Below are positions 4,392 to 56,630 of a DNA stretch of 64,000 nucleotides, in pieces. The DNA lies in NCBI GenBank assembly GCA_963785085.1, contig CAWAUD010000013.1:7700-71699 (forward strand), given 5' to 3'. The stretch is from an uncultured Solirubrobacterales bacterium. GTDB lineage: Bacteria; Actinomycetota; Thermoleophilia; Solirubrobacterales; JBBDJG01. A program made the position numbers and the translations under genes. The notes beneath the pieces were generated by a model. That model was not told the origin of the DNA. It did not search any database and saw only the letters and a program-made list of their open reading frames with translations. Numbering within the stretch: the stretch's first letter is position 1; each line of letters starts with the position of its first letter.

Positions 4392-5180
4392 CAGAACGCG
4401 CATGCGGCCGAGTCGAGCTCGAGCACCGGCTGAAAGGCGCGTCCGCCGCGCCGTCGCGACCCGTCGACCGACGTGCCGTCGGCGGACGCGGTGCTCGTGG
4501 GCCGCTCGCGGCGCGACCCGCGCGTGGATCGCGACGATGCCGCCGGCGAGCAGCAGTGTAGCGGACGTCCCGCAGCCCGGCGCGATCCATCAGCGCCGCC
4601 AGCTCGCGCGCCGGTGGGAAGCGGCGGACGGACTCAGGCAGGTAGCTGTAGGCGTCGCGTCTCGCCGCCAACCGCGCCCAGCAAGGGCACCACCCGGTCG
4701 AACCAGACGGAGTAGAACCAGCTCAACGGAGGGCGCTCGGGGTCGTGATCTCGAGTATCGCCACCGTGCCGCCGGGCCGCACGACGCGCCGCAGCTCGGC
4801 CGAGGCCCGGCAGGTCGACCACGTTGCGCACGCCGAAGCCGACGGTGGCGGCGTCGAACTCGTCGTCCTCGAACGGCAGCTCGAGGGCGTTGGCCTGCCG
4901 GTACTCGACGTCGAGCCCGGCGTTGGCGGACTTGGCCCGCGCCAGGTCGAGCATCGGCTCCGAGAAGTCCACGCCCACGACCGACCCGGCGGGTCCGACT
5001 CGGCGTTTCAGCTCGAGCGAGAGGTCACCCGTGCCGCAGCAGACGTCCAGCGCGCGGTCGCCCGGGCCGATACCCGCGCCGATCGACCGTGCGCGCGCGC
5101 CAGCGGTGATGCAGCCCGGCCGTCATGACCGAGTTCATCAGGTCGTAGCGACCGGCGATGCGGTCGAACATCGACCGCAC
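4391..5180 (-). pseudogene. menG: demethylmenaquinone / ubiquinone C-methyltransferase (UbiE/MenG family), frame broken by about 5-6 indels
   Basis: GTG start at 5180 follows GGGAGAG. Fragments: MRSMFDRIAGRYDLMNSVMTAGLHHRWR.. / AGIGPGDRALDVCCGTGDLSLEL..VVGVDFSEPMLDLAR..VEYRQANALELPFEDDEFDAATVGFGVRNV / ERPPLSWFYSVWFDRVVPLLG / DAYSYLPESVRRFPPARELAALMDRAGLRDVRY / LLLAGGIVAIHA. The 3' end is uncertain. A TGA at 4391-4393 in one frame overlaps the polyprenyl synthase start. Confidence 0.75.
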
Positions 5181-23611: not shown

Positions 23612-23690
23612 GACGTGGCGAAGATAGCCCCGGGCTCAGTCGGAACCCGGACCCGAAGAGAAGTTCGGAGCCGAACCAATTTCTCCTCCA

Positions 23691-23718
23691 CCGCCTACCG
23701 CCTACCGTCTACCGTCTA
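23691..23718 (-). repeat. tandem heptamer array, 4 units (minus strand TAGACGG TAGACGG TAGGCGG TAGGCGG); the first TAG is the rsmG stop codon
   Basis: Plus strand: CCGCCTA CCGCCTA CCGTCTA CCGTCTA. On the rsmG sense strand the four TAGs fall in frames 0, 1, 2, 0. The array runs straight into TGGAGGAG. Confidence 0.9.
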
Positions 23719-38429: not shown

Positions 38430-38460
38430 CTACCGCCTACCGCCTGCCGCCTGCGGTCTC
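38430..38460 (-). repeat. tandem heptamer array between the CARDB-protein stop and the DUF4446 start (minus strand T-GAGACCG CAGGCGG CAGGCGG TAGGCGG TAG-AA-ATG)
   Basis: Plus strand 38430-38460: c ta CCGCCTA CCGCCTG CCGCCTG CGGTCTC, then a. The array spans the whole 31-bp spacer. The last unit ends 2 nt before the ATG at 38427. Confidence 0.85.
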
Positions 38461-39571
38461 ATTGCGCCGCGAACGCGACCTGATACGTCGCTGTGTTGTT
38501 GTCCTTGTTGGACTCGCCCGGCACCGGCGCGATCTCGACCGTCATCTTCGTCACAGCGCCGGCTGCTGGCTTCTCGGTCAGCGGGATGCTGACGGTCTCG
38601 GTCTGGCCTGCCGCGATCCGCGGGATGGTCTGGTCGACCTGGATCTTCTTGCCGTCGGTGATCGTGATCGTGACGGGGATGTCCGTTTCCTCGGACTCTC
38701 CTCCGTTCTGGACCTCGACGTCGAAGGACAGCTGGTCGGACAGCGTGATCCGGTTGACGCCCTGATCGGACAGCACCGTGCCGGCCGGCTGCGCGGTGAC
38801 CTTCTGCAGACCGGTCCCGTGCAGCCCGGGCGTGGCCGCCTTCTGGGTGCCGGTGCCGAGCTTCCCGAGCCGGGTGGCCACCACTTCTGGATCTAGCCAT
38901 CCGAGATCGGGGAGGAATCTCGAGGTCGGGAAGCGCTCGGTGATGCCGCGGTCGTCATAGGCGTTGTGCAGCTCCGGCAGCACGCGCTGCAGGTAGATCA
39001 CGTCACTGGCGAGAAGCGCTTGCATCTGACCCGCGATCAGGTCGATTGCCTGCTGCTTGCCCTTGTCGCCCAGGGCGGTGGGCAAGAGCTCGGCGACCCG
39101 TGCGATCGCATCCTCGCGAAACTGGAAGGACTCGACCAGGTCGTCGTTCGCGCTGTTCAGCTCGTCCGGGTGGTCGGTGCTCTTTGCCCGGTCGGTCAGC
39201 TGCTGGGCGTCCACTCGCAGCATGTTGACCTGCGTCTGAACGTCGAGCGCGTCCGCGCGGCTCGGCTTGGAGAGGACTTCGAAGAACCGGTCGCTGACGT
39301 CCTGCGAGCTGTTCACGAGCGCCCGCGTGTCGTCGGCGTATGACCGGAAGGCCCGGTCCTTGCGTGCGTCCAGGCAGCTGTTCAGCCCGAGCACGAGGAG
39401 GATGATGATCACCACGATCGCGCCGAGGCCGATCGCCCTGCGCATCCTCAGCGTCTGGGCATCGGTCGACCCACCGGCCCCTCGGCCGGCCGTCGATCGT
39501 GCGGGTCGCCTTCCTCCTTCCATAGAAGCCTTGCGGGCGGCAGTATGACGGGGAAGGCGGGCGCGATGCAC
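38459..39571 (-). CDS. membrane-anchored hypothetical protein with a C-terminal CARDB-like (Ig-fold) domain
   Basis: 370-aa ORF (GTG start; internal Met17 or Met43 also possible). TM AIGLGAIVVIIILLVLGL, a helical ectodomain, and a C-terminus VEVQNGGESEETDIPVTITITDGKKIQVDQTIPRIAAGQTETVSIPL..VPGESNKDNNTATY that resembles CARDB. Confidence 0.55.
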   Translation of the reverse strand: MHRARLPRHTAARKASMEGGRRPARSTAGRGAGGSTDAQTLRMRRAIGLGAIVVIIILLVLGLNSCLDARKDRAFRSYADDTRALVNSSQDVSDRFFEVLSKPSRADALDVQTQVNMLRVDAQQLTDRAKSTDHPDELNSANDDLVESFQFREDAIARVAELLPTALGDKGKQQAIDLIAGQMQALLASDVIYLQRVLPELHNAYDDRGITERFPTSRFLPDLGWLDPEVVATRLGKLGTGTQKAATPGLHGTGLQKVTAQPAGTVLSDQGVNRITLSDQLSFDVEVQNGGESEETDIPVTITITDGKKIQVDQTIPRIAAGQTETVSIPLTEKPAAGAVTKMTVEIAPVPGESNKDNNTATYQVAFAAQ

Positions 39572-41627: not shown

Positions 41628-41633
41628 GCACCG

Positions 41634-42836
41634 ATGCTGAGAGTCGTCGAGGAGGCGGCGCGCACCGATACCGGCCGCCAGCGTCACGCCAACGAGGATT
41701 CCTACCTGGCTCGCTCGCCCGTGTTCGTCGTCGCCGACGGGATGGGGGGTGCTCAGGCGGGCGAGGTTGCCTCGCGCATCGCGGCGGAGTCCTTCGAGGA
41801 AGGCTTCGGGGACGGAGCTCCTGAGCAGGAGCTTGCCCGCGCGGCCCTGGCGGCGAACCGGCGGATCTTCGACCTCGCCCGGGAGGACTCGAGCCGCAGC
41901 GGGATGGGCACGACGCTGACGGGCGCTTTCGTCTCGGACGACGAGGTCAGCATCGTCCACGTCGGCGACAGCCGCGCGTACCTCTACCGCGACGGAACGC
42001 TGCGCCAGCTGACGCGCGACCATTCGCTCGTCGAGGAGCTCCGCCGGCAGGGACAGCTGACGACCGAGGAGGCCGAGGAGCATCCCCAGCGCTCGATCAT
42101 CACGCGGGCCCTTGGCCCCGAGCCCGACGTCGAGCTGGACGTGCACACGCACCAGGCGCGCCCCGGGGATGTCTTCCTGCTCTGCAGCGACGGGCTCACG
42201 AGCATGGTGCGCGAGGACCGGGTGCGGGAGATCCTGTCCTCCAGCGAAGACCTGCGCGAGGCCGCCGACCGCCTCGTGCGCGAGGCCAACGAGATGGGGG
42301 GACGGGACAACATCACGGTCGTCTGCTTCCGGCTCGGCGGGACGCCGGTCGGCGAAGCTCCGGACGACACGGGGGACCTCGGGGACACGATGACCGGTGT
42401 AAGCGCCGCCGACGTCCATGGCGATGAGGTCGTCGCAGCTGACAGACCGGAGACGGGAGACGGGAGACCGGAGACGCTTGAGCCCCCGCCGCGCCGCCGA
42501 CGGCCGCGCGATCCCGCTCGCCGGCGTCGCCGGGTCATCGTCACCGCGGTCCTGATCGGCGTTGCAGTGTTGCTGGTGGCCGGGGCGATCGGCGCCCGCG
42601 CGGCGCTGCGCAACGTCTACTTCGTCGGCCAGGACCACGGGCTCGTGACCCTGTACCGGGGCGTTCCCTACGAGCTTCCGGGCGGCATCAATCTCTACGA
42701 CACCCGGTACGTCAGCTCGGTCCCCGTCGTCCGCCTCAGCCCGGTCGAGCGCCGCCGTCTGCTCGACCACAAGCTGCGCTCGCACAACGATGCGTCCGAC
42801 CTGGTTCGGCGACTCGAGCGGAGCCGCGCGCCATGA
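41634..42836 (+). CDS. pstP: PP2C-family Ser/Thr phosphatase PstP (cytoplasmic catalytic domain, linker, TM, extracellular tail)
   Basis: Intact 400-aa ORF: RTDTGRQRHANEDS, VVADGMGGAQAGEVAS, GMGTTLTG, HVGDSRAY, LCSDGLT, GGRDNITVV. TM VIVTAVLIGVAVLLVAGAIG. Confidence 0.92.
   Translation: MLRVVEEAARTDTGRQRHANEDSYLARSPVFVVADGMGGAQAGEVASRIAAESFEEGFGDGAPEQELARAALAANRRIFDLAREDSSRSGMGTTLTGAFVSDDEVSIVHVGDSRAYLYRDGTLRQLTRDHSLVEELRRQGQLTTEEAEEHPQRSIITRALGPEPDVELDVHTHQARPGDVFLLCSDGLTSMVREDRVREILSSSEDLREAADRLVREANEMGGRDNITVVCFRLGGTPVGEAPDDTGDLGDTMTGVSAADVHGDEVVAADRPETGDGRPETLEPPPRRRRPRDPARRRRRVIVTAVLIGVAVLLVAGAIGARAALRNVYFVGQDHGLVTLYRGVPYELPGGINLYDTRYVSSVPVVRLSPVERRRLLDHKLRSHNDASDLVRRLERSRAP
42443..42477 (+). 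repeat. tandem heptamer array inside the pstP linker (CAGACCG GAGACGG GAGACGG GAGACCG GAGACGC)
   Basis: Five 7-nt units on the pstP sense strand, encoding ..DRPETGDGRPETL.. Same unit family as the intergenic arrays, but with C/G in place of the T of TAG, so no stops arise. Confidence 0.8.
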
Positions 42837-44146
42837 GTGCCCGCGGCCGCGAGCTCCTCGGCCTGCTGCCGGTCACGTTGCTGATCACCGCCGGGTTCAC
42901 CGCGGTGTTCATGGCGCGCCAGAGCGACCTGGGCACGACCACGCTGTCGTGGGGAGGGATCTTCCTGGTCCTCTGCCTCGCGCTGCACCTGTTCATCCGG
43001 GCGCGGCTGCCCGACGCGGACCCGTACCTGTTCCCCCTCGTGGCGCTCCTCTCGGCGTTCGGCCTGGTGATGATCTACCGGATCGACGAGAACCTCGCGC
43101 GCGACCAGGCGGGCTGGTTCCTGGTCGGGATCGTCTTCTTCGTCGGGACCGTGGTGCTCGTGCGGGACATCGACGTGCTGGAGCGCTACCGCTACGTGAT
43201 CGCCGCGACCGGCATCGGCCTGCTGTTGCTCCCGCGGCTGCCGGGCATCGGTGCGCGCGTGAACGGCGCCTACCTCGGCGTGGACGCGGGCCCGCTCTCC
43301 TTTCAGCCGACCGAGTTCGCCAAGCTCTGCATCGTCGTCTTCCTCGCCAGCTACCTGCACGAGCGAGGAGACATGCTCGTTGCGGGCGCCAGACGCGTCG
43401 CCGGCATCACGATCCCGCCGCTGAAGCACTTCGGCCCGCTGCTGGTCGTGTGGGGAGCGTCGATGTTGATGCTGGTCTTCATCCGCGACCTCGGCAGCTC
43501 GCTGATGTTCTTCGCGGCCTTCCTCGCGCTGCTGTACGTGGCGACCGGCGAGCTCTCGTTCGTGCTCGCCGGGAGCGCGATGTTTGCCGGCGGCGCCTGG
43601 TTCTTCGCCCACACCGTGAGTCACGTCCAGGAGCGCGTCGACATCTGGCTCGACCCGTGGAAGGACCCGGCGGGATCGGGGTTCCAGATCGCCCAGTCCC
43701 TGTTCTCGCAGGCGGATGGAGGGCTGTTCGGAAAGGGGTTGGGGCAGGCGTTGCTCCAGCTGCCGGGTGGAGCGCAGATTCCGCCGGCGCCGGACACCGA
43801 CCTGATCTACGCCGTGATCACCAACGAGCTGGGGCTGTTCGGCGCCGCGGCGGTGGTGATGGTCTACCTGCTGTTCGCCGAGCGCGGCTTCCGCACCGCG
43901 ATGCTTGCCGAGGACGGGTTCCAGAAGCTGCTCGCCACCGGGCTGACGGCCGTGTTCGCGTTCCAGGCGTTCGTGATCGTCGGCGGCGTCACCAGGGTGA
44001 TCCCGCTTACCGGCGTGACCCTGCCGTTCATCTCCTACGGTGGAAGCTCCATCGTCGCCAACTTCGTGCTCCTGGCGCTGCTCCTGGTCATCTCCCAGCA
44101 GGCGCGCGCCCCACGGCAGGTGCGCCCCAGCCCGGTGGTCTCTTAG
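42833..44146 (+). CDS. rodA: FtsW/RodA/SpoVE-family peptidoglycan glycosyltransferase (SEDS)
   Basis: Intact 437-aa ORF with about 10 TMs: QPTEFAKL, DLGSSLMF, PDTDLIYAVITNELGL, LPFISYGGSS. The start overlaps the pstP stop (ATGA). Confidence 0.9.
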   Translation: MSARGRELLGLLPVTLLITAGFTAVFMARQSDLGTTTLSWGGIFLVLCLALHLFIRARLPDADPYLFPLVALLSAFGLVMIYRIDENLARDQAGWFLVGIVFFVGTVVLVRDIDVLERYRYVIAATGIGLLLLPRLPGIGARVNGAYLGVDAGPLSFQPTEFAKLCIVVFLASYLHERGDMLVAGARRVAGITIPPLKHFGPLLVVWGASMLMLVFIRDLGSSLMFFAAFLALLYVATGELSFVLAGSAMFAGGAWFFAHTVSHVQERVDIWLDPWKDPAGSGFQIAQSLFSQADGGLFGKGLGQALLQLPGGAQIPPAPDTDLIYAVITNELGLFGAAAVVMVYLLFAERGFRTAMLAEDGFQKLLATGLTAVFAFQAFVIVGGVTRVIPLTGVTLPFISYGGSSIVANFVLLALLLVISQQARAPRQVRPSPVVS

Positions 44147-44148
44147 TC

Positions 44149-45570
44149 ATGCCGGTCAACGTGCGCATCAACCGATTGTTCTTCCTGGTCGTGATCCTGT
44201 TCGCGGTCCTGATCGGCTTCACGTCGTACTGGTCGGTGATCGACGCCGAGGGCCTCAAGGACAACGAGGCCAACCGCCGCCCGCTGCTGGAGCAGCAGCG
44301 CGTGCGGCGCGGCCTCATCTATGCCGCTGATGGAACGGTGCTGGCGCGCAACATCGCGCGGGGCCGCGGATCGGACCGCTTCTACCGCCGCACCTACCCG
44401 ACGAGAGACTTGTTTGCTCATCCGGTGGGATACAGCTTCGTAGAGCGCGGACGCACGGGCCTCGAGCGTTACTACGAGGACGATCTGGCGGGACAGAAGG
44501 GCGAGTTCGGAACGCTGCTCGACGAGATCCGCGGCGCCGACCGCGAGGGCGACGATCTGCTCACGGCGCTCGATCCCAAGACGCAGCTCGTGGCCCAGCA
44601 GGGCTTGGCGGGGCGCGCCGGCTCGGTGGTCGCGATGAACCCGCAGACAGGGCGCGTGCTCGCGATGGTGAGCATCCCGAGCTACGACCCGAACGACGTC
44701 CTGAACCGGTTCGACGACCTGCGCCGCGCGCCCGGCTCGCCGATCCTCAACCGAGCGACCCAAGCGGGCTACCCGCCGGGGTCGACGTTCAAGGTGGTCA
44801 CGGCGACGGCGGCGATCGACTCCGGTCGCTACACGCCGCTTTCGGTGGTCAGCGGCAAGTCACCGAAGATCATCGACGGTGTCCCGCTGTCGAACTTCGG
44901 CGGCGAGCAGTTCGGCCCGATCACGCTCACCCAGGCGCTGACGAACTCCGTCAACACGGTCTGGGCAGAGGTCGGAGTGAAGCTTGGGAAGAGCACCCTG
45001 TTCAAGTACATGGACCGATACGGGTTCAACCAGAAACCACGCGTCGACCTGCCGGCCAGCGAGAAGCGCGCGAGCGGCGTGTACGACAACGGCAAGCTGC
45101 TCGACTCCAGCGACGCGATCGACCTCGGCCGTGTTGCGATCGGTCAGGAGCGCCTTCAGGTCACGCCGCTCCAGATGGCGATGGTGGCCTCCGCGGTGGC
45201 GAACGGTGGCAGCCTGATGCGGCCGCGAATCGCCACCAAGGTCCGCGACCCCGACGGCCGTACCGTCCGCAGCTTCGGGCCCAGCGAGGAGAGCCGCGTG
45301 ATGAAGAAGAGCACCGCGGCCGCGCTTGCGGCGATGATGAGCCGTGTTGTGGCGGAGGGGACCGGCACCGCGGCGGCCCTGCAGGGCATCGACGTCGCGG
45401 GAAAGACGGGGACCGCGGAGAAGGGCCAGCTCAACCAGGCCTGGTTCATCGGCTTCGCGCCCGTCCGCGACCCGCAGGTGGCGGTGGCCGTGACGGTCGA
45501 GCAGACCGCGGGTCAGGGTGGGACCGTTGCGGCGCCGATCGCCAAGCGCGTGATGGAGTCGGTCCTGTGA
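44149..45570 (+). CDS. pbpA: class B penicillin-binding protein (PbpA-like transpeptidase)
   Basis: The ATG at 44149 lies within track ORF 42790..45570. The upstream part of that ORF is an out-of-frame shadow over rodA. TM, then a dimerisation domain and a transpeptidase domain with STFK (GSTFKVVTA), SxN (TNSVNT) and KTG (GKTGTAE). Confidence 0.92.
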   Translation: MPVNVRINRLFFLVVILFAVLIGFTSYWSVIDAEGLKDNEANRRPLLEQQRVRRGLIYAADGTVLARNIARGRGSDRFYRRTYPTRDLFAHPVGYSFVERGRTGLERYYEDDLAGQKGEFGTLLDEIRGADREGDDLLTALDPKTQLVAQQGLAGRAGSVVAMNPQTGRVLAMVSIPSYDPNDVLNRFDDLRRAPGSPILNRATQAGYPPGSTFKVVTATAAIDSGRYTPLSVVSGKSPKIIDGVPLSNFGGEQFGPITLTQALTNSVNTVWAEVGVKLGKSTLFKYMDRYGFNQKPRVDLPASEKRASGVYDNGKLLDSSDAIDLGRVAIGQERLQVTPLQMAMVASAVANGGSLMRPRIATKVRDPDGRTVRSFGPSEESRVMKKSTAAALAAMMSRVVAEGTGTAAALQGIDVAGKTGTAEKGQLNQAWFIGFAPVRDPQVAVAVTVEQTAGQGGTVAAPIAKRVMESVL

Positions 45571-47462
45571 AGGTCGCGACCGGAACCGTGATCGACGAGC
45601 GCTACCGGGTGCTCGAGCGGGTCGGCTCCGGCGGCATGGCGGACGTGTACTGCGCGGAGGACACACGGCTGGGCCGCACGATCGCGATCAAGGTGCTGCA
45701 CGAGCGCTTCTCCCAGGACCGGGAGTTCGTCGAACGCTTTCGCCGTGAGGCCTCCGCGGCCGCGGGGCTCCAGCACCCGAACATCGTCGGCATCTACGAC
45801 CGGGGGGACTCCGACGGCGCGTACTACATCGCGATGGAGTTCGTGGAGGGCGAGACGCTCAAGGACGTGATCCGGCGCGAGGCGCCGATGGACCCGGGCC
45901 GGACGATCTCGATCGTCAAGGAGATACTCGCGGCGACCCGCTTCGCGCACAAGCGGGGCGTGATCCACAGGGATCTGAAGCCGCAGAACGTGATGATCGA
46001 GCCCGACGACCACATCAAGGTGGCGGACTTCGGCATCGCGCGCGCATCGGGGTCGGACATCACCGAGGTGGGCGCGATCATGGGCACCGCGCAGTACCTC
46101 TCGCCCGAGCAGGCGCACGGTCAGCCGGTGACGGCGGCATCGGACCTCTACTCGATAGGCGTCGTGATGTTCGAGATGCTCACCGGCCGTGCGCCCTTCG
46201 AGGCGGAGAGTCCCGTCGCGGTAGCGCTCAAGCACGTGAACCAGCCGGCGCCGTCGCCCCGCGAGTTCGTTCCCGCGGTGCCGCCCGAGCTCGAGGCGAT
46301 CGTCCTGAAGGCGCTCGCCAAGGACCCTGAGCGGCGCTATCCCGATGCCGAGTCGATGATGCGTGACCTCGAGGTGGCCCAGTCGCGCCTCGGCGCGAAG
46401 CTGGTCGACACGGAGAGCACGGCGGTGTTCGCGCCCGTGCCGGTTCCGATCCCGACGCCGGTCGTCGCGCCTCCTCCAGACGCCTTGCCGCCGCCGATGG
46501 AGCCGCCTCCGCCGGTGAGCGGTCCACCTCCGGCGCCTCCGGGAGAGCGGGACGACAGGCGGCGCATGCTGTTCCTCCTCGGCCTCGTGGCGGCCGCCCT
46601 CCTTGCTCTTCTGGCCTTCACCCTGTTGCGCAACCAGCCGACCGAGATCGTGCCGCAGGTGATCGGCCAGACGCTCGACAGCGCGCGCGTGGAGATCGAG
46701 GCGAAGCACCTCGGGGTGGACGTCAAACGGCGTGCCGACCCGGCGCCCGCCGACACGGTGATCGATCAGGTGCCCGGAGCCGGCACGAAGGCCGACCGCG
46801 ACTCGACAGTCACGCTGATCGTCTCGAACGGCCCGACTACCGTGAAGATGCCGGACGTCGTGGGGCTTCCGCTCCACGATGCCCACGCCCGCCTGAAACG
46901 GGCGGGTCTGCGCGCCGACGTGACTCGCGAGGCGTCGGGCTCGGTGAACAAGGGAATCGTGATCCGCTCCGACCCGGGACCCGCCCGGCTGACGGAGCGC
47001 GGCTCCTCCGTGACGTTGTTCGTCAGCACCGGGCCACAGCAGGTGACAGTCCCGAATCTCGTGGGACAAGACGAGCCGGACGCCGTCTCGCAGTTGCGAG
47101 ACCTCCACCTCAGCCCGGAGATACGCGAGAAGTCCTCCGACAAGCCACAGGGCACCGTCGTCGACCAGAGCCCCTCCGCGGGACTCCCGGTGGCCGAGGG
47201 CACCACGGTGACGATCTTCGTCTCCAACGCCAACGTCGCGGAGGTTCCCGACGTGACCGGCCTGCGCCAGTCGACCGCCGAGGGGCGCCTCGGCCGCGAG
47301 GGCTTCGACGTCTCGGTGCGCACGACGCCGACCACGGATACGGCGCAGGACGGCTTGGTGATCAGCCAGAGCCCGGCCGGTGGAGCGAAGCGCACCAAGG
47401 GCGCCGTGATCACGATCACCGTCGGCCAGCTGAGCACCTCGACGCCGGGAGGAACGCCCTGA
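45567..47462 (+). CDS. pknB: Ser/Thr protein kinase PknB with four extracellular PASTA domains
   Basis: Intact 631-aa ORF (GTGA overlap with pbpA): GSGGMADVY..AIKVL, HRDLKPQN, DFGIAR, a Pro-rich linker, a TM (LFLLGLVAAALLALLAF), then 4 repeats of about 65 aa (VPQVIGQT.., MPDVVGLP.., VPNLVGQD.., VPDVTGLR..). Confidence 0.93.
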   Translation: MKVATGTVIDERYRVLERVGSGGMADVYCAEDTRLGRTIAIKVLHERFSQDREFVERFRREASAAAGLQHPNIVGIYDRGDSDGAYYIAMEFVEGETLKDVIRREAPMDPGRTISIVKEILAATRFAHKRGVIHRDLKPQNVMIEPDDHIKVADFGIARASGSDITEVGAIMGTAQYLSPEQAHGQPVTAASDLYSIGVVMFEMLTGRAPFEAESPVAVALKHVNQPAPSPREFVPAVPPELEAIVLKALAKDPERRYPDAESMMRDLEVAQSRLGAKLVDTESTAVFAPVPVPIPTPVVAPPPDALPPPMEPPPPVSGPPPAPPGERDDRRRMLFLLGLVAAALLALLAFTLLRNQPTEIVPQVIGQTLDSARVEIEAKHLGVDVKRRADPAPADTVIDQVPGAGTKADRDSTVTLIVSNGPTTVKMPDVVGLPLHDAHARLKRAGLRADVTREASGSVNKGIVIRSDPGPARLTERGSSVTLFVSTGPQQVTVPNLVGQDEPDAVSQLRDLHLSPEIREKSSDKPQGTVVDQSPSAGLPVAEGTTVTIFVSNANVAEVPDVTGLRQSTAEGRLGREGFDVSVRTTPTTDTAQDGLVISQSPAGGAKRTKGAVITITVGQLSTSTPGGTP

Positions 47463-47467
47463 GAGTC

Positions 47468-48472
47468 GTGGTGCTCGCGGGCGGCCGCTCGAGCGAGCAC
47501 GACGTGTCCCTGCGGTCGGGGGCAGCCGTCCTGGACGGGCTCGAGAGCGGCGGCCACGAGACCCTGCCGGTAGTGATCGGCCGGGAAGGGCGCTGGACGG
47601 CGACCGATCCGCGTACACCGGGCGAGGGCGGGGAGCGCGTCGAGGTCGTTCCGGGCGAGGGGCTGCTGGGCGCCGACGTGGCGTTCCCCGTGCTGCACGG
47701 CCCGTTCGGCGAGGACGGCACGGTCCAGGGCCTGCTCGAATGCGCCGGCGTGCCGTATGTGGGCGCGGGCGTGCTGGCCTCCGCGCTCTGCCTCGACAAG
47801 GCCGCGTTCAAGCGGATGATGAGCCAGGCCGGCCTGCCGCAGGTGCGCTACGAGGTCGTGACGCAGGCCGAGTGGTCCGCGGCCCGGTCAGCGGCGCTCG
47901 AGCGCGCAGCCACCGTGGGCTTCCCTTCGTTCACCAAGCCCGCGCATCTCGGATCGAGCGTCGGCATCTCGAAGGTCGACACCGCGGCCGAGCTGGAGCC
48001 GGCGCTGGAGCGGGCGCTCGCGCACGACCCGACGGCGCTGGTCGAGGCTGCGGCAATCGGGCGCGAGGTCGAATGCTCGGTGATCGGCAACGACAAGCCG
48101 GTCGCGTCCGAGCCCGGCGAGGTCGTCACGGTCGGAGGCGACTGGTACGACTTCGACTCCAAGTACACGGCGGGCGGCATGGAGCTGCGCGTGCCGGCGC
48201 CGATCGAGCCGGCCCAGCTGGAGCGGGTCCGCCGCATCGCGACCGACGCGTTCCGTGAATCCGGCTGCGCCGGGCTCGCGCGCGTCGACTTCTTCGTAAC
48301 CGACGACGGGCGCGTCCTGCTGAACGAGTTGAACACGATGCCCGGCTTCACCGAGACGAGCGTCTTCGCAAAGCTGTTCGCCGCATCCGGGCTCGGGTAT
48401 GTGGAACTGCTGGATCGGCTGCTGGGTTTCGCTCTGGAACGCCACGAGCGGGAAGCGGCATACCTTTACTGA
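47468..48472 (+). CDS. ddl: D-alanine--D-alanine ligase (paralog 2, DdlA-like), 5 nt downstream of pknB
   Basis: Intact 334-aa ORF (GTG start, GGGAGGA upstream): VLAGGRSSEHDVSLRSG, FPVLHGPFGEDGTVQG, PYVGAGV, FTKPAHLGSSVG, WYDFDSKYTAGG, ARVDFF, NELNTMPGFTETS. Confidence 0.9.
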   Translation: MVLAGGRSSEHDVSLRSGAAVLDGLESGGHETLPVVIGREGRWTATDPRTPGEGGERVEVVPGEGLLGADVAFPVLHGPFGEDGTVQGLLECAGVPYVGAGVLASALCLDKAAFKRMMSQAGLPQVRYEVVTQAEWSAARSAALERAATVGFPSFTKPAHLGSSVGISKVDTAAELEPALERALAHDPTALVEAAAIGREVECSVIGNDKPVASEPGEVVTVGGDWYDFDSKYTAGGMELRVPAPIEPAQLERVRRIATDAFRESGCAGLARVDFFVTDDGRVLLNELNTMPGFTETSVFAKLFAASGLGYVELLDRLLGFALERHEREAAYLY

Positions 48473-48493
48473 CCGCCTACCGCCTACCGCCTA
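48473..48493 (-). repeat. tandem heptamer array, 3 perfect units (minus strand TAGGCGG x3), filling the whole gap between two convergent stop codons
   Basis: Plus strand: TGA(ddl) CCGCCTA CCGCCTA CCGCCTA CTA(kinase stop). On the kinase sense strand this reads TAG TAGGCGG TAGGCGG TAGGCGG TCA, giving a TAG in all three frames. Confidence 0.95.
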
Positions 48494-49969
48494 CTACCGA
48501 GTAACTCCAGCTCCGAGATGGCCGCGTTCGACCTTCCGGTAGTTCCCTCGGTCAGCTTGCGTGATCCACACCAGGTAGTACTGCTTGGCCTTGCCGCGGG
48601 TGTTGAGGCGGAAGGCCTCGCGGTTGCGCGTCATCTGACCGCCGCCCACAGGCTGCCAGCCGGCGAGTGTGGCGGGCGGTCCCGAGTCTGCCGCGTAGAG
48701 CCCGAAGGTCCACCCGCTCTTCGGGGTCGTGATCCGCAGGCCGCGCGCGACCACGGGGCGGCCCGTGTCGAGGTAGACGCCGACGCCGTCCTTGATGCCG
48801 CCGAGGTCCGGCGTGTCGTAGTTCTCGGTCTCCCACGCCGTGGTCGGGTTGCCGTCGAGAGCCAGGTCCAGGTTCTCCGGGTTCTCGCTGCCATCGCCGG
48901 GGGGCGGGTCGAAGTCTCCGATGTCCTGCTCCCCGAGAGGGATGGGGGACAGGCCACCCGCCGCAGCGGGCGGGCTTTCGCCGTTCGAGTCGAACAGCAG
49001 CGCCGCCCCAAAGGCGACTGCCACCGCGATGACGACGTACATGGCCGCCATTGCGAAGCGCCGCCCCCGCATGCCTCGGCGCGCAGCCTCGGCGGGCAGC
49101 GCCTGCAGCACGGCCGTCGCCTCACCGGTCGCCTCGCCCGAGCGAGCCGCCTCGTAGGTCAGCACCTCCTCCAGGTCGCCCACGAAGTCGCCCATCGTCG
49201 CGTAGCGGTTGCGCAGCTCCTTTGCGGTGGCGCGCTCGACCACCGAGGCGAGCGCCGCGGAAACCTCGGGCCGGCGCCGCTGGACGTCCGGCAGCCCTTC
49301 GCGCACGTGTTTCATCGCAATGCTCACCGCGCTGTCGGCCTTGAAGGGAACCTCGCCGACGAGCATCTCGAACAGCACGATTCCGAGCGAGTAGACGTCG
49401 GACTGCCCGGTCACCGGCTCGCCCATCGCCTGCTCGGGCGAGACGTAGTCCGTCGTCCCGATGACCCGGCCGGTCCCGGTCAGCTGCTCGAACTCGAGTC
49501 CGCTGGCGATGCCGAAGTCCGTCACCTTGGCGCGGCCCTCCTCGTCGAGGAGCACGTTCTGCGGCTTGACGTCGCGATGCACGAGCCCGCGCTCGTGCGC
49601 GGCCTGCAGAGCCCGCCCGATCTCGATGGCATAGGCGACCGCCTCGCTCACCGGCAGCGCGCCATCGCGCCGGATGCGGTCCTTGAGCGTCTCCCCGTGC
49701 ACGTGCTCGAAGACGATGTAGGGCTGTCCCTCGTCCTCGCCCGCGTCGATCACCATCACGACGTGCGGGTGCGAGAGCTGCGCCACCGTGCGCGCCTCGC
49801 GCCGGAAGCGCTCGAGCGAGCTCGGGTCCTGGGACACCGCCGTGTGCATGATCTTCAGCGCGACGTCGCGCTCGAGCGTCTCGTCGAACGCCTTGTAGAC
49901 CGTCGACATGCCGCCCGAGCCGATCTTGGCCTCGATCCGGTAGCGACTTGAGAGTGTGGTGCCGATCAA
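48494..49969 (-). CDS. Ser/Thr protein kinase with an extracellular discoidin-like (F5/8 type C, galactose-binding-like) C-terminal domain
   Basis: Probable TTG start at 49969 within track ORF 48494..50278. GSGGMSTVY..ALKIM, HRDVKPQN, DFGIAS, a TM (AMAAMYVVIAVAVAFGAALLF), then ..ALDGNPTTAWETENY..GVYLD..RGLRITT..WTFGLYAAD... Confidence 0.8.
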   Translation of the reverse strand: MIGTTLSSRYRIEAKIGSGGMSTVYKAFDETLERDVALKIMHTAVSQDPSSLERFRREARTVAQLSHPHVVMVIDAGEDEGQPYIVFEHVHGETLKDRIRRDGALPVSEAVAYAIEIGRALQAAHERGLVHRDVKPQNVLLDEEGRAKVTDFGIASGLEFEQLTGTGRVIGTTDYVSPEQAMGEPVTGQSDVYSLGIVLFEMLVGEVPFKADSAVSIAMKHVREGLPDVQRRRPEVSAALASVVERATAKELRNRYATMGDFVGDLEEVLTYEAARSGEATGEATAVLQALPAEAARRGMRGRRFAMAAMYVVIAVAVAFGAALLFDSNGESPPAAAGGLSPIPLGEQDIGDFDPPPGDGSENPENLDLALDGNPTTAWETENYDTPDLGGIKDGVGVYLDTGRPVVARGLRITTPKSGWTFGLYAADSGPPATLAGWQPVGGGQMTRNREAFRLNTRGKAKQYYLVWITQADRGNYRKVERGHLGAGVTR

Positions 49970-50031
49970 TGGCTTGGTTGGGCGTCTCGGCCCGTACGTG
50001 GGTTCGAGTTGCTGACAGTATTTTGCGCCCG

Positions 50032-50902
50032 ATGATGGAGATTCGCTGTCACACCGATCCCGCCTGCCCGTGGTCGTGGGCGATGGAGCCCGCGATCCGC
50101 GGTCTGATGGTCTCTTTCGGGGATGGTCTGCGATGGCGTTTCGTGATGGGAGGGCTCGGCCGTGACCTGCTGGACGAGGGCTCCGGGCCGAGCCGGCAGC
50201 TCGGCTCCGCTGCCACCGCGCGTCTGGTCCGCGAATGGCTGACCGCCGCAGAGGTGGCCGAGGCACCGCTCGACCCACTGGTCTGGTTCGAAAGCCCGCT
50301 TAGATCGACGTTCCCGGCCTGCATGGCCGTCAAGGCGGCCGCCGAACAGGCCCCGGACGGCGGTTATCGCTACATACGCCGCTTGCGCGAGGGGATTCTC
50401 TGCGAGCGGCGGCGCCTCGACCACGCCGAGCCGCTGGTCGAGGAGGCGCGCGCGGCCGGGCTCGACGTGGAGCGCTTTCGCATCGACCTGCGCTCGCATG
50501 GGATCACGGAGGCGTTCGCCGCGGACCTCGACGCAACCGCGGCGCTCGCGGAGGAGGAGCCCGCCGGCGGCGACGTGCACGGTTCGAGGACAGCCTCGGG
50601 CGCGGTGCTTCCGACGCTCGTGATCTCGAACGAGGCCGGCGAGCGGCGGGTCCTGGTCGGGCTCCATGGTCTTGGCGAGTGTCGCGCGGCTGTCGAGGAG
50701 CTGGGCGCGACCGCGACCGTCGAGCCGACGCCGACTCCCGAAGCTCTGATGGAGAGATTCGGACGGGTCACGACTCAGGAGGTCGTCGAGATCTGCGTTC
50801 TGCCGGGACCGCGGGCAGCCGCGGAACTGTGGCGCCTGGCGGGCGAGTGGAAGGTGCGCGGTGAGGCGGTGTCTTACCGGGGAGCTGTGGGAGAAGGCGT
50901 AG
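50032..50902 (+). pseudogene. DsbA-family thioredoxin-fold protein (CPWS active-site variant), one indel near 50870
   Basis: MMEIRCHTDPACPWSWAMEP..MGGL..FPACMAVKAA.., from the real part of track ORF 49948..51468. Deleting one base near gtgtcttacc restores ..GEWKVRGEAVLTGELWEKA* with its stop at TAG 50900-50902. The uncorrected frame reads through the repeat array. Confidence 0.65.
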
Positions 50903-50970
50903 GCGGTAGGCGGCAGTCGGCAGTCGGCAGTCGGGAGTCGGCAGACCCGCAGACCGCAGACCGCAGACGG
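50900..50970 (+). repeat. tandem heptamer array, 10 units (TAGGCGG x2, CAGTCGG x3, GAGTCGG, CAGACCCG, CAGACCG x2, CAGACGG)
   Basis: A 71-bp run between the DsbA-like stop (the first TAG) and the purM stop (TCA at 50971-50973). Adjacent units are identical or differ by one base. One unit is 8 nt long. Confidence 0.95.
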
Positions 50971-52057
50971 TCAGGCTTTGGCGAAGCCCTCGCTCGGCTC
51001 AGCGCGCAGGCTCTCGCTTGGGATCGTCACTACTCCTGCTTCCGCCGTAACCGTTCCGATCCGTCTGCTTCCCCGGTGGTGCTTGTTCAGCAAAGCGACC
51101 GCTGCGTCTGCATCCGCATCCGGCACTACGCAGCACAGGCCGGTGCCCATGTTGAAGACCTCCCACATCTCCGTGGCGCCGATGTTCCCCGATCGGGCGA
51201 TCAGGTCGAAGACCGGCTGCGGCTCGCAGCGGCGCGTCGATCTCGAAGCCGACCTCGTCGCTCAGGCGCCGGAGGTTCAGCAGGCCGTCGCCGGTTATGT
51301 GGGCCAGGCCGTGCACGTCCACTTTGGAGCCCAGCAGCCCGAGCGCCGCCCGCACGTAGATCGCCGTGGGCTCGAGGAGCTCGTCGGCAAGCGTCCGACC
51401 GAGCTCCTGGATGTGCTGGTCGAGCGACAGGGCGCCATCCTCCAGCAGCGCCCTGCGAGCGAGCGTGAAGCCGTTCGAATGGATCCCGCTCGACGGTACG
51501 CCGATCACCGCGTCGCCGGGTGCGACGGTGCCGCCGTCGAGGATCGCGTCCAGCCCCACGACGCCGAACGCCGCGCCGACCAGGTCGATGCCGTTGGGCG
51601 ACGGATGCCCGCGGATCATCTCCGGAAGCTGCGCCAGCTCGCCGCCCGGGATCTCGATTCGCGCTTCCTCCGCGCCGCGCCGCAGGCCCTCTCCGACCGC
51701 CGACAACACGTCCGCATCCGCGCGCTCGACTGCCAGGTAGTCCACCATCGCCAGCGGCTCGGCGCCGACGCAGATCAGGTCGTTGACGTTCATCGCGATG
51801 CAGTCGATCCCCACCGTGTCGAACCGGCCGGCCTGCTCGGCGACGATCAGCTTCGTGCCGACACCGTCGGTGCAGAGCGCGACGCCGGTGCGCTCGTCAA
51901 GCGCCAGAACGGCCGCGTAGTGGCCCGATCGCAGGACAGAGCGCCGCGGCCGCCCGGGATCGATGGCACTGAGCGCAGCGACAAGCCCGGCGAGCGCAGA
52001 GCCCGCTGCGGAAGTGTCGACCCCCGCCGCCGCATAGGAGTCGCGCGAGTGCGTCAC
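50971..52057 (-). pseudogene. purM: phosphoribosylformylglycinamidine cyclo-ligase (AIR synthetase, PurM), one indel near 51225
   Basis: The GTG at 52057 overlaps the uppP stop (GTGA). SYAAAGVDTSAAG..LCTDGVGTKL..GIDCIAMNVNDL..GAEPL..GGELAQLP..GVPSSGIHSNGFTL..HITGDG. The C-terminus continues in ORF 50971..51168 (MWEVFNMGTGLCCVV..). Confidence 0.88.
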
Positions 52058-52935
52058 CCGGCGGCGACTGTCATCCGGGGCGGAGCCGGGGCCGAAGCTC
52101 CTTGGACGGCAGTGGAAGCGGAGCGCGAGCGCCGTCGCAGCGCCGCAAGAGCAACCGCCGCCAGCGCGGCCCGGTAGGCCGCGTAGGGAAGCAGCGAGCG
52201 GCTGCGCTCGAGCATCGCGATCAGTCGCAGTGAGGCGAGGGTGGACACGAACGCCGCTGCCGATCCGGCCGCCATTCCGCGTGCGACATCGGGCGGAACG
52301 CCACGCTTCGCCAGCCGGGCTCCCTTGAGTCCCGCCGCGCCGATGATCACGGGAAGCGCGATCTGGCGCGAGATGATGTTCGAGTCGGCGCGCCTGAAGC
52401 CGCGCCATCGGGCGGCGGTCAGGGTCGCGCCGTTGCGGGACACGCCGGGCATCAGGGCGAATGCCTGCGCGCAGCCGATCGCGAGCGCGTCCGCCGCGGT
52501 CGCGGCGTCACGGCTGCGGTGCTCCGGGCGCCGGTCCGCAACCGCCATCGCGGCGGAGCCTGCCATCAGAGCGATCGCAACCGGGGCCGGGCGGCTCAGC
52601 CGCCGCTCGATCCAGTGCTCGAAGAGCGTGGCTGCGGCCGCCGCCGGGGCGAACGACAGGCCGAGCGTCATCACGTTGCGCGGGCCGAACGAGCGGACGT
52701 ACTCGGCAACCTCGCGCCGCAGGCCGATCAGCAGCGCGAGCGCCCCGCCGGCGTGCAGCGCCACCTCGAACGACTTGCGCAGCTCGGGATCCAGGTCGCC
52801 GTAGGTCCAGCCCAGGAGCGCGGGCACCAGGACCAGGTGGCCCGAGCTCGACACGGGCAGCAGCTCAGCCGGGCCCTGCACCGCGCCCAGCACGACGGCG
52901 TGGCGAAGCGGCAGGCGCTCCGGCTTGTCTCTCAA
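52054..52935 (-). CDS. uppP: undecaprenyl-diphosphate phosphatase (UppP/BacA)
   Basis: The TTG at 52935 overlaps the DedA stop (TTGA), within track ORF 52054..53298. VLGAVQGPAELLPVSSSGHLVL, FEVALHAGGALA, AFALMPGVSRNGATL, SRQIALPVIIGA. Confidence 0.88.
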   Translation of the reverse strand: MRDKPERLPLRHAVVLGAVQGPAELLPVSSSGHLVLVPALLGWTYGDLDPELRKSFEVALHAGGALALLIGLRREVAEYVRSFGPRNVMTLGLSFAPAAAAATLFEHWIERRLSRPAPVAIALMAGSAAMAVADRRPEHRSRDAATAADALAIGCAQAFALMPGVSRNGATLTAARWRGFRRADSNIISRQIALPVIIGAAGLKGARLAKRGVPPDVARGMAAGSAAAFVSTLASLRLIAMLERSRSLLPYAAYRAALAAVALAALRRRSRSASTAVQGASAPAPPRMTVAAG

Positions 52936-53591
52936 CCCGTGGATTCGGTCGTCGCCGGTTTGCTGCCGCCCGAGCGCCGGCGCCTGATCAGGAGGTAGAT
53001 GATCCCGCTGAGGATCAGGCCGACCACCGCGTAGTCGACGTAGTGGAGCTTCTCCTGGAGGTTGTCCCAGTTGTCGCCAACCGCGTTCCCCACGATCGCG
53101 AAGCCGAGTACCCACGGGACGATGCCGAGGAAGCTCAGCAGGGTGAAGCGCCAGAAGGGCATCCGCGCGACTCCCGCCGGGAACGAGATGAACGTCCGGA
53201 TCACCGGGATCATCCGTGAGAAGAACACCGTCGCATCGCCGTGCTGCTCGAACCAGCGGTCGGCCCACGCCAGGTGCTTGGGCGTGATGTGCAGCCACTT
53301 GCCGTGGCGCTCGAGCACCTCGACACGGCCGTAGTAGCCGATCCCGTACGCGACCCAGGAGCCGATCAGGTTCCCGAGCACGCCGGCGGCCACGACCGCG
53401 AACATCGAGAACCGGCCGTCGGCGACCTCGAAGCCGGCGAACAGCATGATCGCCTCGCTGGAGGTCGGGATGCCCGCGCTGTCGGCGAGCATCAGCAGGA
53501 AGATCCCGGCGAGTCCCAGGTCACCGATCACGTTCGTCGCGAAGTCCACGACCGGGCCCGTGATCGAGGCTACGACGAGCATTCCGAACAT
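52932..53591 (-). CDS. DedA-family membrane protein
   Basis: Intact 219-aa ORF: GLAGIFLLMLADSAGIPTSSEAIMLFAG.., GSWVAYGIGYYGR, FFSRMIPVIRTFISFPAG (DedA/SNARE-associated signature). Confidence 0.85.
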   Translation of the reverse strand: MFGMLVVASITGPVVDFATNVIGDLGLAGIFLLMLADSAGIPTSSEAIMLFAGFEVADGRFSMFAVVAAGVLGNLIGSWVAYGIGYYGRVEVLERHGKWLHITPKHLAWADRWFEQHGDATVFFSRMIPVIRTFISFPAGVARMPFWRFTLLSFLGIVPWVLGFAIVGNAVGDNWDNLQEKLHYVDYAVVGLILSGIIYLLIRRRRSGGSKPATTESTG

Positions 53592-53605
53592 ACTGTCACG
53601 ACTCC

Positions 53606-54696
53606 ATGACCATTCCTCTATTCGGCACCGGCGACCAGCTCAGTGAGATCCGGCCGCAGCTCGAGCGCCGCATCCTTGGCGTTCTCGACTCCGGGCGGTT
53701 CGTCGGCGGCCCCGAGGTGGAGGCTTTCGAGCGGGAGTTCGCAGAGTACCTCGGCGTGTCCGATGTCGTTGGCGTCGGGAACGGCACGGACGCCATCACG
53801 ATCGCCCTGATGTGCCTCGGGGTCGGGCCGGGGGACGACGTCGTGGTGCCGTCGTTCACCTTCTACGCCTCGGCCGAGGCGATCCCGCATACGGGCGCGC
53901 GTCCGGTGTTCTGCGACGTCGATCCGGAGACTTTCTGCGTCACTCCGGAGACCGTCGAACGCGCATTGACCCCGCAAACCAAGGCAGTTGTCGCCGTGGA
54001 CCTGTTCGGCGTCCCGCCCCGGTGACGGAGCTGCGGGAGTCGCTCGCGAGTCGTGGGATCCCCGTGCTGGAGGACGCCGCCCAGGCGGCCGGAGCGGAGC
54101 TCGACGGCGTGCGAGGCGGGGCGATGGGGGACGTCGCGACGTTCAGCTTTTTTCCATCTAAGAACCTCCCCGGCGTCGGCGACGGGGGAGCACTCGCGAC
54201 GTCGCGACCCGAGATCGCCGAGCAAGCACGGCTGCTCCGTCACCACGGATCGCGCGACAAGCAGACGTTCACGCTGGTCGGGTTCAACTCGCGCCTGGAT
54301 GCTTTTCAGGCAGCGGCCCTGCGGGTCTCGCTCGAGCACCTCGACCACTGGAACGATCGGCGCAGGGACCTGGCCGCCGCGTATGCGGAAAGCGGGCTTG
54401 CGAATCACGCCCGCCTGCCCGGAGGATCCGCCGGGAGGGCGCCACGTCGTACCACCTGTACGTGGTCGCCGCCGCGGACGCCGACGAGCTGGCGCAGCGA
54501 CTCGAACGAGGCGGGCATCGACACGCGCGCCTACTACCGCACGCCGGTGCACCGCCAGCCGGCGATGGAGCCCTGGGGTGCCGGTGTCGAGCTGCCGGGC
54601 ACCGAGCAGGCGGCCCGCGAGAATCTGGCGCTTCCGATGGGACCGGCATACGGCTCCGATGTCGCACGCGCCGTGTTCGAGGCTTTGCAGGCCTAA
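53606..54696 (+). pseudogene. DegT/DnrJ/EryC1/StrS-family sugar aminotransferase, about 3 indels (about 54018, 54430, 54500)
   Basis: N-terminal ORF 53606..54025: ..LDSGRFVGGPEVEAFEREFAEYLG..GVGNGTDAITIAL..VVVPSFTFYASAEAI. Then ..IPVLEDAAQAAGA..ATFSFFPSKNLPGVGDGGA.. (PLP lysine), then YHLYVVAAADADELAQRL, then NEAGIDTRAYYRTPVHRQPA. Confidence 0.85.
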
Positions 54697-54742
54697 ACCC
54701 CGGGCCTTTCCCCCGACCCCAAGCCGTAAGATCACAGCCCAG

Positions 54743-56630
54743 ATGCGCACGCGCCTCACCGACCCGGTGTACCGCCACCGGATGCTGCAGCTTGCCGTTG
54801 ACGCGGTGCTTGTCGCAGCCGCCTACACGCTCGCGTACGTCCTGCGCTTCGACAACGGCATTCCGCAGCGATACCAGGACCTGCTCGTCGACACGATCGC
54901 GTTCGTCGTCGTCGGGAAGGTCGCGATCTTCGCCGCCTTCGGCCTCTACCAGAAGTGGTGGCGCTACGTGGGCCTGCGCGACCTCGAATCGATCCTGCGA
55001 GCAGTCGTCGTCGCCAGCCTCGCCCTCGTCGGCGTGCTGTACGTCTGGTCGCCCACGGACCACGACCTGCCGCGCTCGATCGCGGTCATGGACCTGCTGT
55101 TGACGGCCGCCCTGGTGGGCGGTGCGCGGCTCGTCGTGCGCAGCGCCCTCGAGCGGCCTCCCAGGGGGTCCGTGCTGCCCAAGGGGCAGGAGGTCCTGAT
55201 CGTCGGCGCCGGCGAGGCCGGCCAGCTCGTCTGCCGCGAGATGCAGCGCGCGCCTGAGCTGCGCGAGACTCCGATCGGCTTCGTCGACGACGATCCGCGC
55301 AAGCGCGGGATGCGCGTCCTGGGCCTCAAGGTGCTCGGCACCACCGACGACCTCGAGCTGTTGCTCGACGAGATCGAGCCCGACGAGGTGATCATCGCGA
55401 TTCCCTCCGCGCCGGGTGTCGTGCGCGAGAAGGTGGTCCGCGCGTGCCGCGACCGGGACATCCCGGTTCGGACTCTGCCTGGCGTGTTCGAGCTCATCTC
55501 TGGCTCGGTGGACCTGATCCGGCAGGTCCGCGAGGTTCAGGTCGAGGACATCCTGGGCCGCGAGCCGGTCACGGTCGGGATCCGGGAGGCCGGTGCCTGG
55601 CTGCACGACCGCACGGTCCTGGTGACCGGGGCCGGTGGCTCGATCGGCTCGGAGCTCTGCCGGCAGATAGCGCGGGTGGGGCCGCGCCTGCTGGTGATGA
55701 TCGACCACGCCGAGGACAACCTGTTCGAGATCGAGCGCGAGCTGATCTCGGAACGTCACTTCACCGGCTGCGAGTCGATCCTCGCCGACTGCAAGGAGCC
55801 CGGCCGCATGCGCGAGGTGATGCAGCGCTTCCGGCCGGACGTCGTCTTCCACGCCGCCGCTTACAAGCACGTTTCCCTCACCGAGGACAACCCGCTGGAG
55901 GCGTTGCGCAACAACGCGATCGGCACGCGTGTGGTCGCGACCGCGTCGGCGGAGGTTGGCGCTCGCCGGTTCGTCCTGGTCTCGACGGACAAGGCCGTGA
56001 ACCCGGCGACCGCGCTGGGGGCGTCGAAGGCGATGGCGGAGTGGATCGTCGAGGCGTGGGGCCATCGTTATCCGGACACCGCTGTTCTGCTGCGTGCGGT
56101 TCGGGAACGTGCTCGGGTCGAGCGGCAGCGTCGTGCCGCTGTTCCGCCGCCAGATCGAGCAGGGCGGCCCGGTGACCATCACCCACCCGGACATGGAGCG
56201 CTACTTCATGACGGTCCCCGAGGCCGTACAGCTGATCATCCGCGCCGGCAACCTCGCCACCGGTGGCGAGGTGTTCGTCCTCGAGATGGGCGAGCAGGTC
56301 CGCATCGTCGATCTGGCGCGCAACATGATCCGGCTCTCCGGCCAGCAGGAGGGGCGCGACATCTCGATCGAGATCATCGGCCCGCGCCCGGGGGAGAAGC
56401 TGCGCGAGGAGCTCTTCAACGACGACGAGCGCCCGGTTCCGACGGCCGCCGACAAGATCCTCAAGGCCGAGCGCCCGGAGCTCGAGCCCGAGTGGGTCGA
56501 GGCCGCCTTCGAGCGCATCGAGCGCCTGGTGGAGCAGGGCGACGAGACCTTCCTCGCCCAGCACCTCTCCGAGCTGGCCAAGAGTGCGCGCGCGAGCATC
56601 GCACGGGACCTGAAGGCTCTGGCCCGGTAG
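54743..56630 (+). pseudogene. membrane-bound nucleotide-sugar 4,6-dehydratase (CapD/WbpM/PglF family), one indel near 56085
   Basis: The ATG at 54743 lies within track ORF 54053..56650. Four N-terminal TMs, a Rossmann motif VTGAGGSIGSEL and a catalytic AAAYKHV. After ..YPDTA the sequence continues in ORF 56094..56630 (RFGNVLGSSGSVVPLFRRQIEQGGPVTITHPDMERYFMT..). Confidence 0.85.

Follow-up and report, generated by a model that had tools for sequence, protein, structure and literature searches.

A TAGGCGG array between ddl and a convergent kinase gene probably belongs to a lineage-specific family of heptanucleotide repeats in Thermoleophilia

Heptamers were the most overrepresented long simple-sequence repeats in the repeat-rich genomes surveyed by Mrazek (2007), some Actinobacteria included, as that survey is cited in later work (PMC4679880, PMC4692102), and they were attributed there to polymerase slippage (as cited in PMC4679880). 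Rehm et al. (2015) described G-rich heptameric repeats, GGGAATC in Xanthomonas and GGGGA(C/T)T in Nostoc, with the consensus GGGNATC (PMC4692102). MacGregor (2015) reported TAACTGA direct repeats in marine Beggiatoaceae, Cyanobacteria, and Bacteroidetes, where the arrays overlap upstream stop codons and extend to the next start codon (PMC4679880). Heptanucleotide units are also what the array described below shares with the repeats of the Mrazek survey and with the STRR repeats of cyanobacteria (Calothrix PCC 7601). As far as the accessible literature on these surveys shows, neither a TAGGCGG-type unit nor Thermoleophilia is described in them, and our literature search for the tandem unit TAGGCGGTAGGCGG or its complement found neither.

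The array lies in a 64-kb stretch of DNA, the whole of which we analyzed and refer to as the window. On one side is ddl, encoding D-alanine–D-alanine ligase (47468..48472, plus strand; Pfam PF07478 and PF01820, domains Dala_Dala_lig_N and Dala_Dala_lig_C); on the other is a convergent Ser/Thr protein kinase gene (594-codon ORF, 48494..50278, minus strand; Pfam Pkinase), which probably starts farther downstream than the listed GTG. Between them, at 48473..48493, three units with 100% identity read TAGGCGG on the kinase sense strand (minus) and CCGCCTA on the ddl sense strand, arranged head to tail as in heptanucleotide simple-sequence repeat families. Tandem Repeats Finder reports a period of 7, 3.3 copies, and 100% matches. 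The array directly abuts the ddl TGA (48470..48472, plus strand), and the Ddl C terminus can be aligned with that of relatives to the last residue. In the sequence as given, its other end meets the TAG that closes the long kinase ORF (48494..48496, minus strand; CTA on the plus strand). An earlier interpretation made from the letters alone (the sequence-only reading) had seen three TAGGCGG units between these two stop codons and four TAGs covering all frames of the kinase strand; the sequence and Tandem Repeats Finder bear out the former, and the TAGs are indeed found at offsets 0, 3, 10, and 17, in all three frames.

Its description of the array as the entire spacer is correct for the sequence as it stands and incorrect for the conserved kinase frame. 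Alignment with four relatives shows one extra nucleotide in the window at 48559, so the last ∼22 kinase codons leave the conserved frame, whose tail (...SNAAISELELLG*) stops at the TAG of the second unit (48484..48486, minus strand). In that frame, the array covers the last three kinase codons, and only 11 nt of spacer are untranslated. Because TAG is present in all three frames of the array, kinase translation ends within the array or at its edge in either frame.

The ddl/kinase array is one of a set, which the sequence-only reading had overlooked. With a score of at least 12, the window contains six period-7 arrays at five loci; 60 Markov shuffles gave a mean of 0.07 and a maximum of 1, and each of the other periods from 4 to 12 yielded 0–1 arrays in the window. 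Four of the five loci are intergenic, two between co-directional and two between convergent genes, with a stop codon in or beside the first unit. At the rsmG–parA junction (23688..23718, minus strand; TAGACGG ×2, TAGGCGG ×2), the rsmG stop is the first TAG of the array (23716–23718), which then reaches the GGAGGAG Shine–Dalgarno sequence of parA. The pair formed by rsmG (gidB) and parA usually resides beside the chromosomal origin region. At the CARDB–DUF4446 junction (38430..38460, minus strand; T[GAGACCG] CAGGCGG ×2, TAGGCGG, TAG), the TGA of the CARDB-domain gene (38459–38461) overlaps the first unit, and the array constitutes the whole 31-nt spacer to the DUF4446 ATG; homology confirms both of these gene boundaries. 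The Trx5–purM junction (50900..50970, plus strand) has ∼10 units: TAGGCGG ×2, CAGTCGG ×3, GAGTCGG, and then CAGACCG-type units. Here, the Thioredoxin_5 stop in the relatives' frame (...LTGELWEKA*) is the first TAG of the array at 50900, and purM's stop (TCA, 50971–50973) bounds the other end. We rejected the Thioredoxin_5 ORF that reads through the array to 51468, since alignment shows one extra nucleotide in the window at 50859 and the relatives stop at the first TAG.

The fifth locus carries a related array (42443..42477, plus strand; CAGACCG, GAGACGG ×2, GAGACCG, GAGACGC) inside the PstP (PP2C) gene, and the idea that all five loci are intergenic was dropped because PstP homology continues through 42443–42477. 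This array codes for DRPETGDGRPETL in a nonconserved disordered linker from the PP2C domain to the membrane segment, and it is missing from the L203 and L208 orthologues.

We searched for homologues of the Ddl protein, which were graded from 97% to 74% identity, and compared their contigs. Among relatives with 80–97% Ddl identity, the ddl–kinase junction takes five states. In L201 and L202, which come from two different samples (Ddl 97%), the ddl TAG is followed by TCGG, CAGACCG ×4, and the kinase CTA, so that the ddl TAG belongs to the first unit and NAGNCNG is read on the ddl strand. L201 aligns to window positions 44153–54820 with a DNA identity of 93%; its same-strand unit, ACCGCAG (4321–4352), differs from the window's ACCGCCT only in AG vs. 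CT, and this change, which may stem from conversion of units inside an ancestral array or from a separate origin, suffices to switch the strand that reads NAGNCNG. In L205 (Ddl 85%), the junction (1777–1836) holds an inverted pair with one sense array per gene after each stop codon: the ddl TGA, then GACCG CAGTCCG CAGTCTG CAGAGCGG ttgaaccaa AGTCTGC CGACTGC TGACTGC CGA, then CTA. This pair folds at −33.1 kcal/mol (z = −4.83), and the fold suggests a possible U-less bidirectional terminator made of repeats. The stop codons overlap with zero spacer in L203 (Ddl 91%) and L204 (86%), L206 and L207 (both 80%) have the 9-nt spacer CGGCCGGTT, and the gene table of the P0003 contig (Ddl 90%) implies a 14-nt junction.

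The Trx5–purM junction is similarly variable, with 4 units in L201 (TAGACGG, CAGACGG, CAGACCG ×2), 3.4 in L203 (TAGTCGG, CAGTCGG ×2), and spacers of 4–40 nt or overlaps in more distant relatives. Genomes that are ∼93% identical in DNA thus differ in the sequence of the unit, in the number of copies, and even in whether an array is there at all, and the 3′ junctions that bear arrays measure just 0–15 bp in relatives or have overlapping stop codons. From these comparisons, the ddl/kinase and Trx5–purM arrays appear to behave as a hypervariable microsatellite that has recently filled ancestrally near-zero junctions. Upstream of DUF4446, seven relatives (L008, L029, L030, L032, L038, L047, and L053) have a 60- to 110-nt spacer with a conserved TAnnnT followed by 6–7 nt and ATG, a motif that may be a leaderless-type promoter; it is absent in the window, where the spacer is all array.

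The alignments also revealed single-base insertions in the window relative to L201 and other relatives, at 48559 (kinase), 50859 (Thioredoxin_5), and 51226 (purM), and further single-base indels at 52098/52111, 54008, 54423, 54449, 54507, and 54695. The frames broken are those of the kinase tail, Thioredoxin_5, purM (whose body and C terminus are in different frames), and a gene at 54.0–54.7 kb. These indels are probably assembly errors rather than marks of pseudogenes, perhaps from a long-read MAG, and they leave the exact gene ends in the window slightly uncertain.

All arrays of the window fit the unit pattern NAGNCNG. Across 45 units in 11 arrays of the clade, A2 and G3 occur in every unit, C5 in 44, and G7 in 43, whereas positions 1, 4, and 6 vary freely; because some array edges were set with the help of the pattern itself, this near-invariance is suggestive only. 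The likeness to the repeats of Rehm et al. extends to tandem 7-nt units that are dispersed genome-wide, overrepresented in noncoding DNA, located between aligned or convergent ORFs, and extensively variable in length and sequence at the same junction among close relatives (PMC4692102). The window arrays differ in having a NAGNCNG/TAGGCGG unit with a stop codon inside it, in occurring in Thermoleophilia at ∼70% GC, and in being shorter (2–10 units) and often filling a whole junction. Moreover, their G-runs are only GG: the most that ViennaRNA predicts is a two-tetrad quadruplex, and this for TAGGCGG arrays but not for CAGACCG or CAGTCGG arrays; quadruplex potential is a trait specific to the Rehm subclass of heptamer repeats. 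With TAACTGA, the window arrays have in common that they are intergenic heptamers whose forward strand carries stops in all three frames (PMC4679880) and that some reach the next start without a canonical ribosome-binding site, as the CARDB–DUF4446 array does. In contrast, TAACTGA is AT-rich, has mostly been described by its position relative to the following start codon, and has been proposed to spread horizontally (PMC4679880); the window arrays are anchored at the upstream stop, and two of the four intergenic ones lie between convergent genes. Every testable defining feature of heptamer repeats is present in the window arrays, which belong to a known kind of bacterial repeat.

We then delimited the range of the family. 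Among GTDB species-representative genomes, all relatives of Ddl are Thermoleophilia (Solirubrobacterales, Thermoleophilaceae, and Gaiellaceae MAGs) with at most 65% identity; an exact look-up of the window Ddl gave no match, probably owing to a differing called start. The DNA around ddl at 80 other Thermoleophilia loci, 1.47 Mb in all, contained only four period-7 arrays, none of them of the NAGNCNG type, and the family is therefore lineage-specific. The convergent ddl–kinase order is nevertheless conserved at more distant Thermoleophilia loci. Spacer extraction at the distant loci was rough, with many negative gaps that may reflect read-through of the ddl frame, and the junction comparison is therefore based on the gene-called closer relatives. 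One distant Solirubrobacterales MAG (L041) carries an unrelated heptamer, CCGAGCG ×4–5, at 4831–4858 and 20896–20929, 16 kb apart, and separate heptamer families may exist in other Thermoleophilia lineages.

In JGI metagenomes, (TAGGCGG)3 occurs in at least 120 contigs with a GC content of 34–73% and in up to ∼20 copies, and among the matches listed, it often stands beside variant units and unrelated heptamer arrays. None of these listed contigs (at least 120) is a close relative of the window, and they serve for context statistics only. Gene context was assigned under strict GC1/GC2/GC3 filters where enough flank was available; it is approximate, as the simple GC3 caller mis-called some genes, and low-GC contigs were too few to contribute to the stop-codon statistics. 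Among the matches listed, 39 of 69 testable high-GC contigs have a GC3-supported sense gene whose stop lies −23 to +20 nt from the array start; antisense-gene stops in the high-GC contigs mostly lie 30–62 nt from the array. A sense gene alone was found for 28 of the listed arrays vs. an antisense gene alone for 10 (p = 0.005). The bias is in part built in: with a stop in every frame, the TAG strand can extend into an ORF only at its extreme end, as is likewise the case for TAACTGA (PMC4679880); the bias could still reflect function rather than a tolerance filter. Inverted pairs of identical units 20–60 bp apart are frequent among the contigs listed (L086, L123, L131, L142, L186, and L199) and, for TAGGCGG, always run G-rich and then C-rich on the plus strand, an order that fits a sense array for each of the convergent genes. 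In viral contigs, (TAGGCGG)3 was present at 5 loci vs. 5, 2, 9, and 10 for composition-matched control heptamers. This equal frequency weakened the idea of (TAGGCGG)n as a specially widespread element; it is heptamer arrays as a class that are widespread, rather than TAGGCGG in particular.

Taken as a whole, the 21 bp between ddl and the kinase gene are probably one array of a lineage-specific NAGNCNG heptanucleotide simple-sequence repeat family. Judged by their sequences, the arrays of the clade sit on or directly after stop codons. We suggest that slipped-strand mispairing makes arrays arise, grow, and shrink and that they would persist only where a 7-nt step leaves every reading frame intact, namely at a stop codon and beyond it. 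With survival confined to such places, the ddl/kinase array would be a recent filler of an ancestrally near-zero junction rather than a dedicated terminator. At the sequence level, it has two consequences: the kinase mRNA closes with UAG in every frame, and the first 21 nt of the ddl 3′ trailer are unstructured, C-rich, and G-poor. The two convergent transcripts most likely extend into the opposing gene, to be ended there by Rho acting on untranslated RNA, by read-through, or by collision, and transcripts would necessarily end in the same way in relatives without any spacer. The repeat thus appears dispensable for termination, because it contributes only 21 nt, because there are relatives without a spacer, and because its sister arrays in operon junctions are G-rich in the mRNA. 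However, slippage alone does not explain why C5 and G7 are common to five loci or why variation falls on alternate positions; these features hint at a sequence-specific constraint or a dispersal mechanism.

The window's single-base indels relative to the 93%-identical contig lend some color to chance or an assembly artefact as the source of the array. This reading is effectively refuted: perfect 3×7 arrays are expected only 0.0017 times in 64 kb at the window's composition, and assemblies made independently from different metagenome samples (L201, L202, L203, and L205) contain related arrays at the orthologous junctions. The ddl/kinase array is real and nonrandom. That a pure direct repeat provides no hairpin terminator, as the sequence-only reading held, is confirmed by a consensus scan that found zero terminator-like hairpins in 47400–50400 and by folding. 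The GC-rich stem-loop and U-tract of an intrinsic terminator are lacking at the junction, folding z-scores are +0.57, −0.11, and −0.61 relative to shuffles on either strand, and the array stays single-stranded in the minimum-free-energy fold of a centered 61-nt segment; with no scan match and no excess structure, an intrinsic terminator was rejected. A known RNA family was rejected as well, as Rfam at gathering thresholds matches only two tRNAs in the 64-kb window and nothing at the array. The same reading was right to call the ddl-sense RNA C-rich and G-poor: its C/G ratio in 78-nt windows is 2.29 (48460–48537) and 1.94 (48473–48550), and both exceed the 99th percentile of all 78-nt windows of the 64 kb (1.79). 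With no hairpin and such RNA, Rho-type termination or read-through is therefore the reasonable default. RNA that is C-rich, G-poor, unstructured, untranslated, and located just past a stop codon resembles a Rho utilization (rut) site, and judging from composition, Rho loading at the ddl 3′ trailer would be plausible. That CCGCCUA ×3 together with the C-rich antisense-kinase RNA recruits Rho and ends ddl transcription inside the kinase gene we nonetheless regard as unlikely. Rut sites span about 70–80 nt, an extent that the array cannot supply by itself; it adds just 21 nt to a stretch already rich in C, the remainder being antisense kinase coding sequence. In the co-directional rsmG–parA and CARDB–DUF4446 junctions, the G-rich strand is the mRNA, and these arrays are therefore unable to act as rut sites there; conversely, an orientation that always avoids C-rich mRNA in co-directional junctions is what would be expected if C-rich arrays were Rho-active and polar. 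The proposal that the repeat itself ends the transcripts is not supported, given these points and the comparison with orthologous spacers, where an absence of the repeat with unchanged transcript ends was to count against it. As to the absence itself, L203, L204, and L206/L207 are without the array, and L201/L202 and L205 carry other units or orientations. A dedicated transcription terminator is very unlikely.

A role for the opposite strand has different evidence behind it. By analogy, (NAG-N4)n RNA might form a sense-strand 3′ element that binds a multimeric HutP/TRAP-like protein or folds into a two-tetrad G-quadruplex, with effects on coupling, translation termination, or how stable mRNA 3′ ends are. 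The binding site of HutP is a 21-mer with three XAG motifs spaced by 4 nt (PMC2425495), and the array likewise offers NAG-N4 three times over 21 nt (UAG-GCGG ×3) with A and G conserved; invariant AG and nearly invariant C5 and G7 at a 7-nt period fit such recognition, as do the sense bias and the position beside stop codons of the metagenome arrays listed. For the array alone, the ViennaRNA G-quadruplex model gives −12.1 vs. −3.6 kcal/mol. We consider this element distinctly improbable, however. The HutP site lies in a Bacillus 5′ leader flanking a terminator stem, whereas the ddl/kinase array stands at gene 3′ ends and shows no terminator/antiterminator overlap, the terminator being absent; a quadruplex is predicted neither for the relatives' CAGACCG and CAGTCGG arrays nor for most of the Trx5–purM array; the array is missing from orthologous junctions; the control heptamers are as common in viral contigs; and the sense bias is partly forced. 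The inverted pairs raise the further thought that the functional form is a repeat-built hairpin terminator, of which the window array would be one arm, incomplete or decayed. The L205 pair at the same junction, with its strong predicted fold, and the pairs in many listed metagenome contigs point that way, but the window array is unstructured and has no partner within the junction, L201/L202 likewise carry a single array, the hairpins have no U-tracts, and a pair may be no more than two sense-strand arrays independent of each other; we hold this to be highly improbable. Taken together, a functional reading, for which the HutP-like geometry and the L205 paired hairpin are the leads, has by analogy a small chance of being correct. 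It is also improbable that this Thermoleophilia lineage actively produces NAGNCNG arrays and disperses them among junctions as a post-stop-codon element that is constrained in sequence and strand-specific. If that were true, the invariant AG.C.G with its 7-nt period would be the signature of a recognizing factor, such as a HutP-like ring RNA-binding protein, or of RNA polymerase pausing; operons would receive from single arrays stops in every frame and a G-rich trailer resistant to Rho, and paired inverted arrays would be U-less bidirectional terminator hairpins between convergent genes.

As members of a heptanucleotide simple-sequence repeat family, the arrays are a tidy example of such a microsatellite in the poorly studied, mostly uncultured Thermoleophilia, and their hypervariability makes them usable as strain markers. 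They also flag the 3′ ends of genes, and they helped reveal the indel errors in the kinase, Thioredoxin_5, and purM frames. For annotation, they carry the warning that stop codons and short junctions in this clade consist of repeat units. The clade is a favorable case for studying heptamer function and origin, because the same junction has no array, a single array on either strand, or a hairpin pair, all within about 85–97% protein identity. The unit is also conserved at alternate positions, a pattern for which slippage by itself does not account.

The ddl gene closes a conserved actinobacterial cell-wall/division cluster in the window (41628–48472), comprising PstP, FtsW/RodA, PBP, PknB (PASTA), and ddl. 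FHA-domain genes are called upstream of this cluster in L203 and L208. The convergent second kinase has a C-terminal domain that is conserved across Thermoleophilia.
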